Source: a virus
Direction: 5' to 3' (one strand)
Length of the DNA stretch: 64,000 nt
Virus record (IMG/VR): IMGVR_UViG_3300017978_000368
Coordinates: 704 to 64,703 of that record
The position numbers were made by a program, and so were the translations under genes. The notes beneath the pieces are model-generated. The model saw only the letters and a program-made list of their open reading frames with translations. It had not been told where the DNA came from and did not search any database. The number at the start of each line of letters is the position of its first letter. The first letter of the stretch is position 1. Positions 35,514-58,705 of the stretch are shown piece after piece.

Positions 35514-35654
35514 TTACTTGCCGTCGTCCAGCAGAGCGGCGAAGCGTGCGATGATTTCCTGAATCCACTCCACTGGGAGCTTGTCATGACCAATGATGTA
35601 CGCGTAGCGCAGCAGCTCGTTGTTGGTCAGGTTCTGTGGTCGAATGCCTTGCAT
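35514..35654 (-). CDS. 46-aa hypothetical protein (not in ORF track)
   Basis: MQGIRPQNLTNNELLRYAY...LLDDGK; GGAG upstream. Confidence 0.55.
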   Translation of the reverse strand: MQGIRPQNLTNNELLRYAYIIGHDKLPVEWIQEIIARFAALLDDGK

Positions 35655-51371: not shown

Positions 51372-51715
51372 GGTTGTGACTCCTGTTGAAGTTGTTTAAG
51401 TTCAGTTGGATGAAATAGCTCAGCCATCTTTGGTTCTGAGTACGAGACGACGAAGTCAGACACCTCATGGCGCATCGCCCACAGCAGCGGCACAGTGTCC
51501 CGCGCTGCGTATAGCATGTCCTTGGTGTATGTAGCCTTGTCGAAGAACTCACGGTGAATAAGGCGCAGTGCCTTGTCCTTGATGCCGCGCCCCACGTACA
51601 GCGAGACCGCTGCCTTGCCCTTCGATGCGGTCATCCACACCTTAGACACGACAACGATCTCGCCGTCAGCGTTGCGGCTGAACAGATGCGTGTTGAGGAC
51701 CACTTGCTTGGTCAT
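51368..51715 (-). CDS. Hypothetical protein
   Basis: TGATG overlap with AAA gene. Confidence 0.55.
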   Translation of the reverse strand: MTKQVVLNTHLFSRNADGEIVVVSKVWMTASKGKAAVSLYVGRGIKDKALRLIHREFFDKATYTKDMLYAARDTVPLLWAMRHEVSDFVVSYSEPKMAELFHPTELKQLQQESQP

Positions 51716-52839
51716 CACTTGGTGCTGAAGAAAATCTTGTGAGCTGCCAGCATCTTGCCGAAGTTGGTCAGCGTCACGTAGATCGACACGCGCTGCGACT
51801 GAGCCACGCTGTTGCAGAAGATAGACTGCATCTCTGCACGCATGCGCCACACGTACTCGACAACCTTCTCGGCATCCTCACGCGTATCGACACGCGAGAC
51901 GAACTGGAACACCTGCACAAGCTGCGCGGTGGGGTTGTCGGACAGAGGCGCAGTCGCTGGGTCTTTGAGCACACGTTCGAGTGAGCAGATGTCACGGCCG
52001 AAGCGCACGAATGAAGACAGCGACTCGGCAGTCGTCGCACCCACAGTACCCACGAGCGCAGCCTCAAGCGTCTCGTCGTCGAGCACACCGTCACCTGAGT
52101 CAAGCACGTCACCCGCTGCAACCAAGCTGCGCGGCGTAGCGTAGGCCAGAGACATGCTGCGAGGGTTGAAGATGTAGCCGTTGTCCTTGTCTTGCTGCTT
52201 GCCCTCATGCTTGCCACCCTTCTCGTAGTCGAGGAACGAGTCCATGACCTGAGCGTAGCTGTTGACGAATGCAATCACAGAGGCGTTGACACCCTTGTCG
52301 ATGGCCCACTGCACCCACTCGCCAGCCGTGGGCTTGCGCATCTTGACGAACACGAGACGGTTGCGCAGGTGCGCTTGGATGCTATCGCCCAGACCCTCGA
52401 CTGCAAGGTTGGTAGCGCAGAACACAACGCTGCCCTCGGGCATGTGATAGTTGCCGACACGGCGCTCGTAGATGATCGGAGCAAGCACGTTCTTGATGAA
52501 CTGCGGAGCCTTGGCGATCTCGTCGAGGAACACCATGATGGGCTTGGCATCATTGACCCCGAGTTGATTGACCTTGCTGACACCGAAGCGCTCGTTAGGC
52601 AGCTCACGAGAGACGCCATTCTCGCGGTCGAGGTCAGGCATCCACACCGAGCCATCGCTCAGCTGTGTGCAGTCAACAGGGTCCACAGCGATGTGGTCTG
52701 CGAACTTGGGGTGCTTCTTGAGCGCATGGAACAGCGCGGTCTTGCCGATACCATTCTCGCCCTCGACGATGACGGTACGCTTGTCGCCCACTGCGGCGAT
52801 GAGGTTGAGAACTTGTGTGAAAGAAAGCATGTTATTCAT
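51715..52839 (-). CDS. MoxR-like AAA+ ATPase
   Basis: Walker A GENGIGKT; Walker B FLDE; sensor ATN; arginine finger LRNRL; TPRS. Confidence 0.9.
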   Translation of the reverse strand: MNNMLSFTQVLNLIAAVGDKRTVIVEGENGIGKTALFHALKKHPKFADHIAVDPVDCTQLSDGSVWMPDLDRENGVSRELPNERFGVSKVNQLGVNDAKPIMVFLDEIAKAPQFIKNVLAPIIYERRVGNYHMPEGSVVFCATNLAVEGLGDSIQAHLRNRLVFVKMRKPTAGEWVQWAIDKGVNASVIAFVNSYAQVMDSFLDYEKGGKHEGKQQDKDNGYIFNPRSMSLAYATPRSLVAAGDVLDSGDGVLDDETLEAALVGTVGATTAESLSSFVRFGRDICSLERVLKDPATAPLSDNPTAQLVQVFQFVSRVDTREDAEKVVEYVWRMRAEMQSIFCNSVAQSQRVSIYVTLTNFGKMLAAHKIFFSTK

Positions 52840-52874: not shown

Positions 52875-52891
52875 GGGAACACCGTGTTCCC
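52875..52891. promoter_or_regulatory. 17-bp palindrome copy 1
   Basis: GGGAACAC-C-GTGTTCCC. Confidence 0.8.
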
Positions 52892-52906
52892 GGCTTGTGG
52901 TTTGAT

Positions 52907-52936
52907 AGTGTATCGTAAATGTCTAGTGTTTGACAA
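52907..52936 (-). promoter_or_regulatory. Putative sigma70 promoter
   Basis: TTGTCA-18 nt-TACACT on minus strand, upstream of palindrome 1 and the AAA gene. Confidence 0.45.
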
Positions 52937-52953
52937 CTCCTTTCTGTAAAAAT

Positions 52954-53889
52954 TTATGCGAACGGCGTGGCCGTTGTGCGTGGGAAGTCCATGATGTTCA
53001 TGAACTGGGGCAGCGGCACAGCCGCAGACTTGCGCTTGAGCGCATAGGTCTCACGCACGATCACTCTCCACAACCCGTCAGCCAGAACCTTCTCTGTAAC
53101 AGGTTGCTCAGAGTTGTGCTCGGCTTTGTAGTACAGCTTGGTGGCCTCGTAGTCGTAGACCTTCTCGGCCAGCGTCATGAACGCGTTGATGTAGTCCTGC
53201 CCCAGAGCGCTGCCCTGTGTCATGCAGCGCAGCGCGTCGCGCTGCGCCCAAGTAACATCAACTCCACCCCTGAATGGGATAAGCATGTCTTCGTCGATGA
53301 ACTCTATGCGCCGCCAGTCCCCCATGCGCATGCAAGCCAGCGTGATGTAGGGCTCACACAGCGCCTTGATGTGGTTGCGTGTCTCCTTGTCGCTCTTGCC
53401 CACCTTGTGCGTGTACATCGGCGTGTGTGCTGACTGCTCTACGACGAGGCGTTTGCGTGGGCTGTTGTCGAACCACAAGCTGGCGCTGAACTCGCGGCCA
53501 TCTTCATGTATGCAGTCTTTGGCTGGCACAGGCACGGCCACCGTTTGATTGTCCGTGGTGTCCATGTGCATCAAGGTGCTGTGCCGTGTGACGTTGCGCA
53601 TGAATTGCTTGGATGTGTTGCTGTTGTGCGATGTGTACATCACGCGCCGTCCGTCTGGTGTTGGTGCATAGAAACGCGCCATGGCCGTGGTGTACAGCAT
53701 GACGTCGTAGTACTCGCCGCCACGTCCCTGCTCGATGCGATAGTGCCACGAGCGTGTGTCCTTGAGTGGGCGCTGGTTGTCGTTCCACTGACCCTTGCGT
53801 GTGAATGGCTTGGGCGTCTGGGTAAACCACTCGTGCGCTGACTCGAAGTCGTTGATGGTTGGAAGGTTGTAAATGGATGATGAGAACAT
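52954..53889 (-). CDS. Hypothetical early protein
   Basis: AAAGGAG SD; 311-aa ORF. Confidence 0.75.
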   Translation of the reverse strand: MFSSSIYNLPTINDFESAHEWFTQTPKPFTRKGQWNDNQRPLKDTRSWHYRIEQGRGGEYYDVMLYTTAMARFYAPTPDGRRVMYTSHNSNTSKQFMRNVTRHSTLMHMDTTDNQTVAVPVPAKDCIHEDGREFSASLWFDNSPRKRLVVEQSAHTPMYTHKVGKSDKETRNHIKALCEPYITLACMRMGDWRRIEFIDEDMLIPFRGGVDVTWAQRDALRCMTQGSALGQDYINAFMTLAEKVYDYEATKLYYKAEHNSEQPVTEKVLADGLWRVIVRETYALKRKSAAVPLPQFMNIMDFPRTTATPFA

Positions 53890-54331
53890 GGTTGAAACTC
53901 CTTTGGTTGGTGATGAAAATTACTCGGCGTCTGGTGCAGGAAAGTCTACGCGGATGCTGCGCACGGGGTCTACGTATTCCCACAGGTCGTAGTGGCCTTC
54001 GCCACCCGATTCTATTTGTAGGTCGTCGTTGTCTTCCCCCACGCGCACGAAGCGCCACTCGGCACCGAAAAGCTTCTCGGCATCGCGCATCAGTACGTCA
54101 TGGGCCTGCACTTCTGGATACGATTCATACCACTTCCACCCCTCTTGATAGAAGGTGATGATTGGGTGTTCGCCGTACTTGTACTGAACTTCGCTGAGCA
54201 CCGTGTTGGTGTGCGGGTCGTTCTTGGCGTGCATGAGCGTGACGAAGTTGTCGCGGTGCTCGATGGTGTCGAAGTGAATGACGTATGCAATGTCTGATCT
54301 GTAACCCATGGTTGAAACTCCTTTGGTTGGT
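53887..54331. repeat. 25-bp exact direct repeat pair (SD + start codon) flanking one gene
   Basis: catggttgaaactcctttggttggt at 53887-53911 and 54307-54331. Confidence 0.9.
53920..54309 (-). CDS. Acidic hypothetical early protein
   Basis: MGYRSD...KWYESYPEV...FVRVGEDNDD; AAAGGAG SD. Confidence 0.75.
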   Translation of the reverse strand: MGYRSDIAYVIHFDTIEHRDNFVTLMHAKNDPHTNTVLSEVQYKYGEHPIITFYQEGWKWYESYPEVQAHDVLMRDAEKLFGAEWRFVRVGEDNDDLQIESGGEGHYDLWEYVDPVRSIRVDFPAPDAE

Positions 54332-54338
54332 AAAAAAT

Positions 54339-54355
54339 GGGAACACGTTGTTCCC
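54339..54355. promoter_or_regulatory. 17-bp palindrome copy 2 (one mismatch)
   Basis: GGGAACAC-G-TTGTTCCC. Confidence 0.75.
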
Positions 54356-54376
54356 AGAAAGAATGATGACTGTTCC

Positions 54377-55057
54377 TTATACAAGGACGCCATCCTCGTC
54401 GAAGCGCCAGCCGTTGGCGTAAGCGCCCTCGATCAGCGACTCCTCACTGGTGAGGTGCTCGTGCTCAGCCTCAAGGTCTGCGTAGATTTTGTCAGCGAAC
54501 TCGCGTGCCTCCTCGATGACCCACTCCTCCAAGTCTTCGATCAGGTACTCGCCGTCGATACCTTTCCACAACTGGTACACATCGGCGCGTTGCAGTGGCC
54601 CGTCGTACTGCAAGCGTTGTTCACTGCCTTCGTCAAGCTGGTCCACAGCGCCGAAGTCTGTACTGTCAAGGCGCATTGTCTGCGAGTGCACGTAATGAAA
54701 CCCGTAGCGCGTGATGTTGACGTACTTCTCCACCCAGCCCTCGTCAAGCAGCGCTTGCAAAACAAAGTACCGATGATGGTCGGGGTTGTCTTCCTTCAAG
54801 TGGTGCTCAAGAAAGTGTTTGAGGTGCACGCGCCCTGTCCACGACGCGCCATCGCCTTGTGACCAGAAGCCTGAGAAGCGTATGTCCTCGATGTCGAAGC
54901 CCTTGGCCTTGCCATCTTCCTTGGCGCTGGCGTACGTGCAGTCCCACCATTCGTAGTCCAGCGTTTCGCTGAACCACATGAGCGCTTTCTCCTTGGCCTT
55001 GGGGCTCAAGTCTTCATAGATGAACTCGGTCTGTTCTGTTTCGATTTCAGTTGTCAT
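54377..55057 (-). CDS. Highly acidic early protein (candidate DNA mimic/anti-defence)
   Basis: D/E-rich; YEDLSPKAKEKA, FSGFWSQGDGA; AAAGGAG SD. Confidence 0.7.
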   Translation of the reverse strand: MTTEIETEQTEFIYEDLSPKAKEKALMWFSETLDYEWWDCTYASAKEDGKAKGFDIEDIRFSGFWSQGDGASWTGRVHLKHFLEHHLKEDNPDHHRYFVLQALLDEGWVEKYVNITRYGFHYVHSQTMRLDSTDFGAVDQLDEGSEQRLQYDGPLQRADVYQLWKGIDGEYLIEDLEEWVIEEAREFADKIYADLEAEHEHLTSEESLIEGAYANGWRFDEDGVLV

Positions 55058-55307
55058 GGTTGCTCTCCTTTGGTTGATCCATCTTCGCAATGATTACTGA
55101 CGCAGCGACGAGTGCTTGGGCCATGAGGTGCAGGTCCTGCATCTCTTTCTTTGCGCTCAGCAGCACGTTGGCAGCAGCTTGCTTGGTCATGTCCTTCATG
55201 AGTAGCTCAAACGCCTCGGGCTTGCGCTGGAGTAGCTTCTGTATGACAGGCAGGGCCTGTCGTTCTTCCCATGTGAGGGTGATCTTTGGTTTTGTCTCGG
55301 TTGTCAT
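55047..55307 (-). CDS. Hypothetical protein
   Basis: GGAG SD. Confidence 0.6.
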   Translation of the reverse strand: MTTETKPKITLTWEERQALPVIQKLLQRKPEAFELLMKDMTKQAAANVLLSAKKEMQDLHLMAQALVAASVIIAKMDQPKESNHDN

Positions 55308-55310
55308 GTC

Positions 55311-55436
55311 TCACTCCAAAAGTAAAAACACCACCATGAAGATGGCGAACAGCGCAAAGATGATGAGCTCAGCCTTGTCGCTGATGCTCTCTCTGTGCGT
55401 GGGGATGGGCTTGGCTGGGCCGGTGTATTTAGGCAT
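55311..55436 (-). CDS. 41-aa membrane peptide (not in ORF track)
   Basis: MPKYTGPAK...AELIIFALFAIFMVVFLLLE; AAGGA SD. Confidence 0.55.
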   Translation of the reverse strand: MPKYTGPAKPIPTHRESISDKAELIIFALFAIFMVVFLLLE

Positions 55437-55701
55437 TTGATTGATCCTTTCTTTCTCTTACGAGCCACTCGATGATGTTCATACCCTCGGCAAGCGTTGC
55501 CACGGGTTGGTCGTGGATGCGGGCAGGCCCATCGTTGCTTGTCACGAAGTACTCGACCCGCCTGCGCAGGCCCTCTTTTCCTTTGTCACGTTGCTCAACA
55601 AACCCAGCCGATGTGCTGCCGTTTGGGTACAGGTAGTGGATTCGCAGATGTTCTGCGTCCCTTACAGGCTGGAACATGCGCCACTCATAGCCTTCGTTCA
55701 T
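55429..55701 (-). CDS. Hypothetical protein
   Basis: AAGGAG SD. Confidence 0.6.
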   Translation of the reverse strand: MNEGYEWRMFQPVRDAEHLRIHYLYPNGSTSAGFVEQRDKGKEGLRRRVEYFVTSNDGPARIHDQPVATLAEGMNIIEWLVRERKDQSNA

Positions 55702-55719
55702 ATGCTTCTCCTTCGGTTG

Positions 55720-56184
55720 TTACAGCATGTCGCGCAGCACGTCCTTGACCTTGTCTTCCCAGTCGATACCGTCGATCTCCTCGTCCACATGCTGGGTGAT
55801 GATGTCCTTGACCTCGTCCTCTGTGACCCAGCCTTGTTGGATGCGGGCGTACTCGGTCAGTGTGGCGCGTGCTGTGTCTGCGGCCATCTGCTCGATGGTT
55901 TCTTGGGTGTGGTGCTCTTCGTTGTCCTCGTGGCTGGTGATGGCCTGCTCAACTGCGGTCTCGATCCTCTGGGCGATCATCAGCTCCAGCGCTTGGTCCA
56001 TGAGGGTCAGTGCGCGTCTGTTCTCCACCATGGCGTTGAACTTGGTCTCGACCAGCATGTCGATGTGCTTGGTCACGGCTTCGAGGAACAGGTTGACCCA
56101 CGAGTGGGCCACGTGGTGTTGTGGCTCGGGTGGGGTTGGTTGCTTGTCGTCGTCCATTGTGATGGGTTGGTTGATGTTTGTCAT
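55720..56184 (-). CDS. Acidic helical early protein
   Basis: GGAG SD; D/E-rich C-terminal half. Confidence 0.7.
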   Translation of the reverse strand: MTNINQPITMDDDKQPTPPEPQHHVAHSWVNLFLEAVTKHIDMLVETKFNAMVENRRALTLMDQALELMIAQRIETAVEQAITSHEDNEEHHTQETIEQMAADTARATLTEYARIQQGWVTEDEVKDIITQHVDEEIDGIDWEDKVKDVLRDML

Positions 56185-56231
56185 GATTGCTCTCCATAAG
56201 ATGTTTGCCAGTGACCGACTGGCAGCGGATT

Positions 56232-56248
56232 GGGAACACGGTGTTCCC
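56232..56248. promoter_or_regulatory. 17-bp palindrome copy 3
   Basis: GGGAACAC-G-GTGTTCCC. Confidence 0.8.
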
Positions 56249-56260
56249 AGATGCTGTTGT

Positions 56261-57112
56261 TCAAAGGTTGTCCCACCAACTTGGGTCGGACTCAGGCATG
56301 CTTGGGAGGGGTATCTCGGGCACGTGGATGATGGGTGGAGGCGGCGGCATGGGCACGCCAGCCTCTCGCATGGCCTTGACCCGTTCGAGTCGAGCCTTGG
56401 GGCTACCGTCCTTGGCCAGTGATGACACCTTGGGCGGTACACGATCCTTAGATGGCGGCACCCATGTGGCCAAGCCGGGCAGTCGGGCACGCTGGCGGTA
56501 CTCACTGGGCAGTGTCTCCCACAGTCGCTTCATGCGGATGCGCTCTTCCCATGTGACGTGCGGTTCCCAATCCAAGAACTTGGGCGCGATTCCCTTGGCG
56601 TTGCAGTCGAACTTCATACGCTCGCGCAGTTGGGTGAGCAGCAGCTTGTATTCCAAGAAGAATGTAAGGTCCATGCCCGGCCGTGTCTTCTTGGCGTGCT
56701 TCTCTTGTTGCTGGATGGCAGCCAACTCAGAGCGCAAACCCCCTATGACCTCGCCCCACGGCTTGGTCTTGGCCGCCTTCCATGCAGCACTGGCCGCCAT
56801 GCGCCGGTTGATGTTGGCCTTTCTGCTGCGTCGGCGCAGCTCTTCAGTGCCCCACGGTGCGTACAAGTCCCCGGCGCTGACGCGGTTGTGAATCTCCTTG
56901 GCCGTCAGTTCTCTGAGGGGTTTGGCGCGGGGTTGGCACAGCTTGCACATGGATGACTCGATCTCCACGCTTGCGTTGCCTGAGTAGCCCCTCGCTCTGG
57001 CCTGTGCTCGGGACAGGTCTCGCTTGAACTCGGCCAGCGGTTTGATCTGTTTGCACACGGCGCACATGGCCGCTTTGGTGCCCGGTGCAGGTGCAAGGTA
57101 GTGGTCTGACAT
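56261..57112 (-). CDS. Basic Zn-finger-containing early protein
   Basis: CAVC...CKLC; K/R-rich; Pro-rich tail; GGAG SD. Confidence 0.65.
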   Translation of the reverse strand: MSDHYLAPAPGTKAAMCAVCKQIKPLAEFKRDLSRAQARARGYSGNASVEIESSMCKLCQPRAKPLRELTAKEIHNRVSAGDLYAPWGTEELRRRSRKANINRRMAASAAWKAAKTKPWGEVIGGLRSELAAIQQQEKHAKKTRPGMDLTFFLEYKLLLTQLRERMKFDCNAKGIAPKFLDWEPHVTWEERIRMKRLWETLPSEYRQRARLPGLATWVPPSKDRVPPKVSSLAKDGSPKARLERVKAMREAGVPMPPPPPIIHVPEIPLPSMPESDPSWWDNL

Positions 57113-57139
57113 GGTGAATCTCCAAAGATGATGTAACGA

Positions 57140-57420
57140 GATTGTATTTTGTCCACCGAATACATGCAAGTGGACAGTACTGTGGGACAGTGCAAAGCCC
57201 CTGTTTATGCGGGTTGCGAGGGGTGCTGACCCACATGTCTATCAAATTCTGAGAGAACAAGGCTGGGGAAACCTTCGGGGTAAATCTTGTCCACTTGCAC
57301 GCACATATATACATACCTATCTAAATCTCTATTTATATATAGTAGTGTTCTGGACAGTGGACGTTGGACGCTAGTATCCATGCGGGTTACGGGACGTCCA
57401 CGCGATGTCCACGCCGTTGT
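57140..57420. other. Putative replication origin (iteron-like repeats + AT-rich core)
   Basis: Multiple TGGAC/GTCCA; 12-bp inverted repeat 57165-76/57288-99; ATGCGGGTT x2; AT-rich 57305-57345. Confidence 0.5.
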
Positions 57421-57478
57421 AATCGCTAGGATCAGGTGGGTATGCGTTTTTTGCATAGTTTCTCCACAACGTGTTGCT

Positions 57479-57495
57479 GGGAACACGGTGTTCCC
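57479..57495. promoter_or_regulatory. 17-bp palindrome copy 4
   Basis: CT-GGGAACAC-G-GTGTTCCC-AG (extends to 21 bp). Confidence 0.8.
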
Positions 57496-57509
57496 AGCGA
57501 TGGGCCAAG

Positions 57510-57701
57510 TCATTTGAAGCGGAGCTGGCGAGTGTCGGCCTTGTATGTGTCCCACGCAGCGTCACGGGCTCGCGCCTCTTCGATGACCTTGCGCTTGTAG
57601 GCTTTGTCCTCAGCGAGCCGCACGAAGTCTTCACGCAGGGCGCGGAGCTTGGCGCGTTCGGTTGTCTTGATGTCGATGGTGTAACGGTTGCGATGTGTCA
57701 T
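57510..57701 (-). CDS. Small basic early protein
   Basis: AGGAG SD; MTHRNRYTIDI. Confidence 0.65.
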   Translation of the reverse strand: MTHRNRYTIDIKTTERAKLRALREDFVRLAEDKAYKRKVIEEARARDAAWDTYKADTRQLRFK

Positions 57702-57720
57702 GGTTGATTCTCCTGAGTGT

Positions 57721-57737
57721 GGGAACACTGTGTTCCC
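57721..57737. promoter_or_regulatory. 17-bp palindrome copy 5
   Basis: GGGAACAC-T-GTGTTCCC. Confidence 0.8.
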
Positions 57738-57791
57738 AGAGTGATAGCGTGCGCCTATCGGGCGCAGCGGGTTGATTGTGAATAGCCTGTG

Positions 57792-57817
57792 CCTATCGGG
57801 TTTGTGTGCCCGATAGG
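57792..57817. other. 9-bp stem hairpin
   Basis: CCTATCGGG-8 nt-CCCGATAGG; extra arm copy at 57754-57762. Confidence 0.55.
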
Positions 57818-57858
57818 TTGCGTTTGACAGTAAACGGAACAGCGGCGAAGCCACCCGC

Positions 57859-58254
57859 TCAAAGCATGGCCAAGAAACGGCGCTTTTGTGCAGCAGTCAG
57901 ACCAGCGTAGGCTTTGGCGAGCTTGGCCACCGCATCGACTGGCTTGTGCTGACGTGTTGTGTCGCCAGACTTGAAGTGGATCATCACGTTGCGTGCCCAA
58001 GACATACGAGCAGCATCATGGCGCGTGTCGCGTGAGTACTCAGCGCCGTCAAAGAACTGAGCAGCGCCCGATGCGCTCCACGATACGTTGCACTTGAAGT
58101 GCGCGGCATGCACTTTGGCCAGCGCGGCCAACAGTTGGGAACACGGTGTTCCCGCGAACTCAGCAGCGGCTTGCTTGAGGGCATCGCCGTAGCTGGTGCC
58201 TGCTTTGAGGAACGATGCGTAACGTGCAGCGACTGTGTTGATAGATGTGTTCAT
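57859..58254 (-). CDS. First early protein (hypothetical)
   Basis: AGGAG SD; directly downstream of an extended -10 element. Confidence 0.7.
   Translation of the reverse strand: MNTSINTVAARYASFLKAGTSYGDALKQAAAEFAGTPCSQLLAALAKVHAAHFKCNVSWSASGAAQFFDGAEYSRDTRHDAARMSWARNVMIHFKSGDTTRQHKPVDAVAKLAKAYAGLTAAQKRRFLAML
58137..58153. promoter_or_regulatory. 17-bp palindrome copy 6 (intragenic)
   Basis: GGGAACAC-G-GTGTTCCC inside the 57859-58254 CDS. Confidence 0.8.
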
Positions 58255-58311
58255 GATGCTAACTCCTAAAGGTTGTGAATGTCGCAAGGGCCAATCCCCA
58301 ACGACAACTCT

Positions 58312-58320
58312 ATTTTACCA
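58312..58320 (-). promoter_or_regulatory. Putative extended -10 early promoter
   Basis: TG-G-TAAAAT on minus strand about 60 nt upstream of ATG 58254. Confidence 0.45.
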
Positions 58321-58560
58321 CAACGGGGTTTTTGGTAGTATCTCAGAGGGAGAAGCGAGAACCTTAGACCCCACCACCGGGGCATGTCCCATATATCGAG
58401 GCGGCATGGCGACATGACATGAACACTGTTCCACAACCGCACACAGCATTTTGTAAAACCCTTGACAAACACCACCCCCACCACAACATACTAGTACCCC
58501 CGTACTAATTTTATAAAATTTTCCAAGAATCTCTGTCAAACTCTGGACACCCGGCTACCA

Positions 58561-58593
58561 TAAAAAACCCCCGGGCCTTGTGAGCGCGGGGGT
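58561..58593 (-). terminator. Putative intrinsic terminator
   Basis: Minus strand ACCCCCG...CGGGGGT stem followed by a T-run. Confidence 0.5.
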
Positions 58594-58632
58594 ACAAATT
58601 TCACAACAAATACCTCGGAGAAAACCAACAGC

Positions 58633-58662
58633 TTGCACCGCTGGCGAAATCCAGTGTACATT
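58633..58662 (+). promoter_or_regulatory. Putative sigma70 promoter for packaging operon
   Basis: TTGCAC-18 nt-TACATT upstream of ATG 58706. Confidence 0.35.
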
Positions 58663-58705
58663 ACGCCCATCGAGGTTTCAAGCCTTTTTGGCTGCCTACG
58701 CAAAT

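Follow-up and report, generated by a model that had tools for sequence, protein, structure and literature searches.

In phage lambda, an early operon begins with the gene for Cro, a protein that turns early transcription down, and the lambdoid phages form immunity groups. In the Streptomyces phage phiC31, conserved inverted repeats (CIRs) of about 17 bp, located between the genes of the early region, are bound by the c repressor. Hairpins also serve as recognition elements: lambda boxB is present at two sites per genome and is read via its loop, with N and boxB covarying among lambdoid phages, and the hairpin promoters of phage N4 consist of a 5-7-bp stem and a 3-nucleotide (nt) loop with a conserved purine at the loop centre. 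The repressor of Cluster A mycobacteriophages (of the L5 gp71 type) binds 20-30 "stoperators", mostly off promoters, and blocks elongation; the stoperator consensus varies from one related phage to another, in correlation with the distance between their repressors (PMC6550527, PMC9283540). The present work concerns a 17-bp palindrome, GGGAACAC-N-GTGTTCCC, that is repeated in the early operon of a phage from the IMG/VR collection (record IMGVR_UViG_3300017978_000368). The window that we analysed is a 64-kb stretch of this 65,655-bp viral record, which was judged complete.

The palindromes, together with the different ones that replace them in related phages, probably represent a rapidly diversifying regulator and binding-site system that controls early gene expression. 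In our preferred reading, to which we assign a probability of about 0.5, they are the cognate operators of a dimer of the protein encoded by g1, the first early gene, and govern early transcription.

An exact scan of both strands reveals six matches to the palindrome, at positions 52875, 54339, 56232, 57479, 57721 and 58137, compared with a chance expectation, estimated from shuffles, of 0.01 matches at up to two mismatches. Tolerating up to three mismatches yields no match beyond these six, and the whole record is devoid of other copies; an earlier note on this DNA, made from the letters alone, had already described six copies confined to the early region. The palindromes are confined to about 5.3 kb of the 65.6 kb, all in the minus-strand early operon, where the identical dyads recur at intervals of 0.2-1.9 kb (mean about 1 kb). 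The single mismatch noted earlier in the copy at 54339 is indeed present, and because it falls at the innermost pair, the invariant part of the palindrome comprises two arms of 7 bp each, GGGAACA and TGTTCCC, around a 3-nt centre. The centre base is variable (on the sense strand the six copies read C, A, C, C, C and G) and the outer flank pairs are T-A in four copies and C-G in one, both in line with the initial description. One copy, at 58137, is situated within the coding sequence of g1 (58254-57859), again as described. The other five copies are intergenic, and all of them precede a start codon, instead of only four as first proposed: they end 19, 22, 47, 29 and 35 nt before an ATG (copies 57721, 57479, 56232, 54339 and 52875, respectively), the open reading frame (ORF) that begins after copy 57479 being doubtful.

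The window was compared with about 100 contigs of uncultured freshwater phages, collected by a motif scan of IMG/VR and by two protein-anchored searches. Close relatives contain the same palindrome at syntenic positions, in flanking DNA that is only 76-90% identical. In more distant relatives the palindrome of the window is absent and another perfect palindrome occupies the same places. At least 13 palindrome types occur in relatives whose ATPase, the product of g12, is 75-99% identical. Designated by one arm, these are GGGAACA, GTGAGAC, GCGGACA, GCTGACA, GCAGACA, ACAGACA, ATGGACA, AGGTGCA, GTGGAGA, GTGGTCA, AGTATCA, GGGGTTA and GGGGAGAAC. Each genome contains 4-9 copies, essentially of one type. 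In 46 genomes, 222 of 225 type-specific copies are located within 8 kb upstream of g12, and three in a comparable amount of other DNA. In each of six complete genomes, the only palindrome with three or more copies is the genome's own type and is restricted to the early region, the exception being one unrelated three-copy motif in the genome designated G001.

Most types share a common frame, namely AACTY followed by 7 type-specific nt, NNN, the reverse complement and RAGTTT; in the window's own type the flank is reduced to CT...A, and the GTGAGAC type has a spacer of either 5 or 6 nt. The early promoter, the leader or the 5' part of g1 harbours a copy in every type, and another copy usually stands right after g1. 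Distant, independently found g1 homologues are likewise bracketed by palindromes; most look-ups of such homologues led to contigs too short for use.

At syntenic junctions the flanks are kept and the palindrome is exchanged. The sequence downstream of the site before g5 (56232 in the window), for example, is conserved in relatives in which the site itself is of the GCGGACA, GTGAGAC or GGGGAGAAC type, and the site syntenic to copy 57479 also bears a different palindrome in relatives. Two different palindromes stand in tandem at one junction in two cases, and foreign-type sites occur in the 3' part of several genomes (L167, L161, L194 and L205). Two overlapping contigs, L029 and L025, which we read as one phage type, show F5 (GGGGAGAAC) sites, then GTGAGAC, then F5 again; if they form one genome, a single crossover is insufficient to explain this order. 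One might suppose that the palindromes are primarily recombination junctions for shuffling early-gene cassettes, comparable to the promoter/stem-loop cassettes of T4-type phages, as the earlier note had suggested. Indeed, in comparison with the relative L010, similarity breakpoints and gene insertions are found at or adjoining 54339 and 56232, the flanks being kept and the intervening genes replaced. The breakpoints are real, but their position looks like a consequence of the conserved junctions, and we consider recombination very unlikely as the primary function: type-specific sequences would hinder exchange between phages, and exchange crosses types anyway; identical dyad repeats carry a cost in deletions and inversions; and the codon-level maintenance of the copy within g1, described below, would have no explanation.

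Examination of variation within and between genomes points to a reader of the arm sequence. Of 34 sites with one mismatch, compared within genomes, only four are altered in arm positions 2-6, and in the others the mismatch is at the innermost or outermost pair, a placement which makes G-U wobbles uninformative as a test of RNA pairing. No sequence constraint is seen at the centre nor, in the GTGAGAC type, any on its length. Several types are one position per arm apart (GCG, GCT, GCA, ACA or ATG preceding GACA), and such a difference is shared by both arms and by all copies. The copy within g1 coincides with a conserved A-D-x-x-S-A motif, wherein the third codon positions of Ala and Ser covary to give the genome's own type (GCG GAC..TCC GC, GCA GAC..TCT GC or GCT GAC..TCA GC). 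The same place in g1 encodes AGTPCSQ in the window's clade and RETSVSH in the GTGAGAC clade, there too with a palindrome of the genome's own type. In L014 the copy is identical at 17 of 17 positions, in a g1 that is 47% identical and among flanks and neighbouring codons that are about 60% identical. Judging from these comparisons, the arms are under sequence-specific selection.

This pattern bears directly on the notion that the palindromes are structure-only intercistronic RNA hairpins, serving as weak terminators or stabilisers in the absence of a specific reader, and that their identity within a genome reflects concerted evolution by short-patch recombination among copies. Such a view would accommodate the intercistronic positions, the terminator-like form of one of the six window copies and of many in relatives, the tandem pairs of different type at one junction and the mosaic genomes. 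Plain structural hairpins, however, would covary freely, which these palindromes do not. The lack of drift or covariation at arm positions 2-6 within a genome, the GCG/GCT/GCA differences fixed in both arms, in all copies and in the g1 codons, and the copies located upstream of promoters would all be left unexplained, and we regard this view as rather improbable.

To which gene the palindrome type is linked can be assessed from relatives that differ in type. Proteins that are 88-97% identical between the window phage and G001, the sites of which are of the GTGAGAC type, cannot set the specificity, and this comparison removes most of the replication module from the candidate readers. The helix-turn-helix ORF at 35627 is among the candidates rejected: G001, a complete relative with entirely different palindromes, has it at 90% identity; the earlier proposal of operators for a dimeric phage regulator is thus retained in its general form and dropped as regards this protein. 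The g2 product was rejected as well, as identical g2 proteins are found with different palindrome types. The same applies to g4, a zinc-ribbon protein: L010 combines the palindrome of the window with a highly dissimilar g4, and in L017 a g4 of 70% identity accompanies another palindrome type.

Palindromic sites on early-transcribed DNA could also be recognised by a factor other than an early phage protein, whether they bind (or decoy) a regulator or defence protein of the host or act as operators of the helix-turn-helix protein at 35627. The scan of host genomes that had been recommended earlier yielded 119 single matches among 185,579 species genomes, approximately the number expected by chance, and more than one copy in none of them. 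Furthermore, close relatives from the same freshwater habitats have unrelated palindromes, and the helix-turn-helix ORF is nearly unchanged in G001 with its GTGAGAC-type sites. The idea of a host regulator or decoy was consequently abandoned, and recognition by either kind of factor appears highly improbable. Repetitive extragenic palindromic (REP) elements with their associated transposases (RAYT) were rejected on the same scan, all matches in the species genomes being single-copy.

Among the early genes, g1 is the best tracker of palindrome type, with an area under the curve of 0.959. Between genomes of unlike palindrome type, g1 identity peaks at 69.5%, compared to 78-100% for the other early genes, and the g1 tree requires 11 changes for 12 palindrome types, which is the minimum. 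In 9 of 10 genomes, the g12-proximal site, located 6 kb from g1, is of the type linked to g1. The order of site types in L029 and L025, and the copy that every type has at the early promoter, in the leader or within the start of g1, likewise point to g1.

The g1 proteins form a basic, hypervariable and virus-only family of about 125 amino acids (aa), which separates into 166 clusters at 50% identity. Comparison with Pfam and PHROG assigns g1 to no family, the ESM Atlas contains only unnamed viral clusters of it, and a profile search of the PDB gives expectation values of 0.43 or worse. A model predicted from a 103-row alignment has a predicted local distance difference test (pLDDT) score of 89.3 and consists of three helices, a beta hairpin and three more helices; an earlier model from 32 sequences (pLDDT 57.6) was too poor for use. 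Foldseek searches with the better model against the PDB, AlphaFold DB clusters and BFVD gave no significant match, and with VIA-align the highest wide Z, obtained against generic helical proteins, is 5.6. When modelled as a symmetric homodimer, g1 passes the test with a score of 0.56, the best control reaching 0.00, and the predicted dimer runs show a contact agreement of at least 77% and a partner pLDDT of at least 75. Among proteins of solved structure, 20 of 30 that were solved as pairs of one chain attain the mark of 0.56, as does 1 of 23 solved as single chains, counts which apply only roughly to g1, the alignment of which was self-built. The predicted dimer suggests a protein suited to a dyad site.

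Several features of the sites are consistent with recognition of double-stranded DNA. The 7-3-7 geometry places the half-site centres 10 bp apart, which fits a dimer on duplex. A hairpin could not accommodate an eighth pair, yet the two bases at that position are complementary in 7 of 8 copies of the window's type and overall in 35 of 100 (25 expected). The flank consensus AACTY/RAGTTT is conserved in sequence, and its pairs do not covary. In some relatives or types the family palindrome abuts the -35 element of the early promoter, and some copies are upstream of the -35. We favour duplex recognition, at roughly even odds, and consider an RNA-level reading unlikely; both could hold together.

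In the RNA-level reading, hairpins of the early messenger RNA (mRNA), with a stem of 7-12 bp and a loop of 3-5 nt, would be recognised by a phage-encoded factor, which would probably again be g1. They could serve in lambda-N-like antitermination, in autogenous translational repression just 5' of the Shine-Dalgarno sequence, or in Cas6-like processing or stabilising. All types fold into similar hairpins despite their differing duplex spacing (window stems measure 7-9 bp, and those of relatives reach about 12 bp), the sites end 19-47 nt ahead of start codons, and g1 is first in its operon, like N in lambda. The loops, on the other hand, are free, and known readers, such as N at boxB and coat proteins, read the loop; the stems are perfect duplexes, the sequence of which would be hard to read as A-form RNA; and copies upstream of the -35 of the main early promoter do not fit such a reader. 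The complementary eighth pair and the non-covarying flanks fit duplex recognition better, and the modelled symmetric dimer would match a dyad DNA site. While an mRNA hairpin role thus stays as a rival, two specific hairpin functions raised earlier were set aside: promoters of the N4 type, as no polymerase was found and the loop is unconserved, and RNase III sites of the T7 early type, which comprise about two helical turns of double-stranded RNA and for which the stems are too short.

A number of observations weigh against the reading of the palindromes as operators of g1. A DNA-binding fold, including helix-turn-helix, was not recognised in g1 by the structure searches of the model. The number of extra changes in the gene trees grows with distance from g1 (none for g1, one for g2 and g4, two for g5, three for g9 and four for g10-g12); such a gradient is expected from physical linkage alone, and the g1 association is therefore suggestive and not decisive. 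From the foreign-type sites mentioned above it follows that strict matching to g1 is not required. Most window sites are away from promoters: no window copy overlaps a promoter hexamer, convincing hexamers of a sigma-70 promoter overlapping each palindrome were not found, and only the copy at 52875 adjoins a promoter-like site, starting 16 nt past the -10 of TTGTCA-N18-TACACT, as the earlier note had observed. The 5- or 6-nt spacer of the GTGAGAC type is awkward for a rigid dimer. T runs downstream of the sites are commoner than A runs upstream, and the sense strand shows a mild excess of pyrimidines at the centre, which together suggest some strand-specific, RNA-level component. In many relatives the site directly after g1 resembles a true intrinsic terminator; in the window, only copy 54339 satisfies a scan for hairpin plus U tract on the transcribed strand. 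The variable spacer, the T-run asymmetry and the terminator-like site after g1 are at the same time points in favour of an mRNA-hairpin reader.

Our preferred reading of the palindromes as g1 operators would operate as follows. The palindromes would be cis recognition sites of a phage-encoded sequence-specific factor, most probably the g1 product, acting as a symmetric dimer on double-stranded DNA. Its sites would be those at or just after the early promoter or in g1, right after g1, between early gene blocks, and past the promoter of the ATPase/replication operon. As g1 accumulates, the sites would become occupied, and early transcription, that of g1 included, would be throttled by promoter occlusion together with an elongation roadblock. 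In the course of evolution g1 and its sites would co-diversify into many specificity types. We further propose, more tentatively, that these apparently virulent freshwater phages possess a previously unrecognised "specificity-group" system, composed of an orphan first early protein and dyad sites, with at least 13 specificities, the diversification of which would be expected if the system mediates immunity-like exclusion between co-infecting lytic relatives. The phage protein would then act on the early operon of a co-infecting relative, and escape would drive new specificities.

The coordinates of the palindromes and of the associated genes and promoters are collected in Table 1.

Table 1. 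Palindrome copies, early genes and promoter elements in the window (coordinates are window positions).
Feature	Position	Strand	Remarks
Early promoter/leader 5' of g1	58300..58690	minus	TTGAAA-N17-TACACT by scan
g1, first early gene, candidate cognate factor	57859..58254	minus	131 aa, net charge about +8
Palindrome copy within g1 coding sequence	58137..58153	minus	Codons ~35-40, encodes A-G-T-P-C-S-Q
Palindrome copy	57721..57737	minus	19 nt 5' of g2 start codon
Early genes g2-g11, presumed targets	52954..57701	minus	Mostly orphan ORFs, highly variable among relatives
Palindrome copy	57479..57495	minus	14 nt past g2 stop, head of AT-rich g2-g4 spacer
Palindrome copy	56232..56248	minus	12 nt past g4 stop, 47 nt 5' of g5 start
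Palindrome copy, innermost-pair mismatch, then T run	54339..54355	minus	29 nt 5' of g10
Sigma-70-like promoter TTGTCA-N18-TACACT before g12	52907..52936	minus	Kept in relatives
Palindrome copy in g12 (ATPase) operon leader	52875..52891	minus	16 nt past promoter-like -10, 35 nt before ATG

The phage occurs in freshwater and river metagenomes; among sequencing runs it was listed at the contig level in these and in no RNA data set. Its genome encodes a family A DNA polymerase, a DUF927 primase-helicase, an SNF2 helicase, terminase and portal proteins, and a 2410-aa polyvalent virion protein that matches LPD38 and polyvalent-protein families only. No RNA polymerase family, virion or other, was detected in the genome, in a search that a very divergent enzyme could escape, and no lysogeny genes were noticed. 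With the early region begins a long minus-strand operon that diverges from the plus-strand terminase and structural genes. Its proteins gave nothing informative against Pfam and PHROGs, nearly all being orphans, and a megablast of the region against a phage database gave zero matches. Cultured relatives are distant: by DNA polymerase, the closest are Rhizobium phage RHph_TM3_14A (33%) and Pseudomonas phage KPP25 (30%), and by terminase, Pelagibacter phage HTVC027P (52%). The first 50 kb of KPP25, which include the early region, contain no repeated palindrome family, and DSL-LC04 differs in genome organisation.

Read by eye, the leader at 58300..58690 contains TTGACA-N18-TATAAA and an extended -10, TGgTAAAAT. 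The G-rich word GTGGTGGGGGTGGTG at 58470-58484 in this leader is kept in distant relatives directly 5' of the early promoter, and in some types it is located directly 5' of the first palindrome. Directly after the g1 stop there is a weak terminator-like hairpin (57835-57856); in relatives the homologous hairpin comes after the family palindrome and a T run, such that two terminator-like elements follow g1.

The spacer between g2 and g4 (57130-57440, minus strand) is AT-rich and carries iteron-like GTGGACA/TGTCCAC words plus near-variants, 4 of the 18 exact copies in the window being found inside 260 bp of it. It is possibly an origin or a complex promoter preceding the zinc-ribbon gene g4. The latter (56261-57112) encodes 283 aa with an N-terminal CxxC...CxxC zinc-ribbon-like motif, and its C-terminal part is replaced in L010. 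A second conserved dyad, CAACACGTTG, directly follows the palindrome at 57479 (window 57467-57476) and extends in relatives up to CTCCACAAC-GT-GTTGTGGAG. In phages of the GTGGAGA type, the family palindrome reuses the TGTGGAG half-site of this second dyad in the opposite arrangement.

In contigs L021-L029, GTGAGAC-N5-GTCTCAC is kept inside a gene for a small membrane protein of 45 aa, a homologue of g7 (55311-55436). It is retained in L028/L167, although the remaining sites of the genome are of another type, and the window's own g7 is without it. An identical 25-nt translation-initiation region, ACCAACCAAAGGAGTTTCAACCATG, precedes g10 and g11 (54307-54331 and 53887-53911). The g12 product (51715-52839) is a MoxR-like ATPase with the high clade identity given above, compared to 27-85% for the adjacent early genes, and the closest homologues known from cultured phages are the ATPases of Vibrio phages of the N4-like kind (26%).

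If the proposed system is real, it would provide at least 13 orthogonal protein-DNA (or protein-hairpin) specificities as a natural series in one clade. Some pairs of types are one base pair per half-site apart, which would be useful for the study of recognition-code evolution and for orthogonal regulatory parts. Immunity-like diversification of regulator and operator would then not be limited to temperate phages, and a site kept at the codon level in the regulator's own gene would be an unusually clean overlap of protein and nucleic-acid constraints.

Comparison with the known systems shows a different mixture of likenesses in each case. Like the N4 hairpin promoters, the palindromes can form short-stem hairpins with 3-nt loops upstream of early genes; unlike them, their loop centre is free and a virion RNA polymerase was not found. 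The lambda N/nut system shares the pairing of a first early gene product with hairpin-forming sites in the early transcript, and terminators after the first gene. The present sites differ in their free loops, invariant stems and number (4-9), as well as in the boxA expected beside a boxB, as far as can be judged from the AACTY/RAGTTT flanks, to which the search for shared motifs was confined. The CIRs of phiC31 resemble the palindromes in being highly conserved inverted repeats of about 17 bp in intergenic positions of the early region. In contrast to the system described here, that of phiC31 belongs to a temperate phage, whose early genes do not begin with the repressor gene, and we know of no comparable diversification of types among the CIRs.

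The Cro/CI operators of lambda are likewise 17-bp dyads of approximately 7-3-7 geometry that serve a small dimeric protein, the dimer being a prediction in the case of g1. Lambda operators are clustered at two promoters, in contrast to sites spread over 5-7 kb and mostly off promoters; no window copy overlaps promoter hexamers, and only some copies in relatives abut the -35. Also unlike Cro and CI, the candidate regulator has one site inside its own coding sequence and is not recognisable as a helix-turn-helix protein. With the stoperators the system shares many copies of one phage-specific motif in transcribed, mostly non-promoter positions. The stoperator motif lacks dyad symmetry, follows the direction of transcription, binds a monomer and is distributed genome-wide in temperate phages, as opposed to perfect dyads in 4-9 copies within the early operon only; the candidate protein here is unrelated to their repressor, belongs to an orphan family and is encoded by the first early gene of a phage in which lysogeny genes were not seen. 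By analogy, stoperators would be the closest counterpart in operation and the Cro operators the other close one, with the palindromes described here belonging to neither family.

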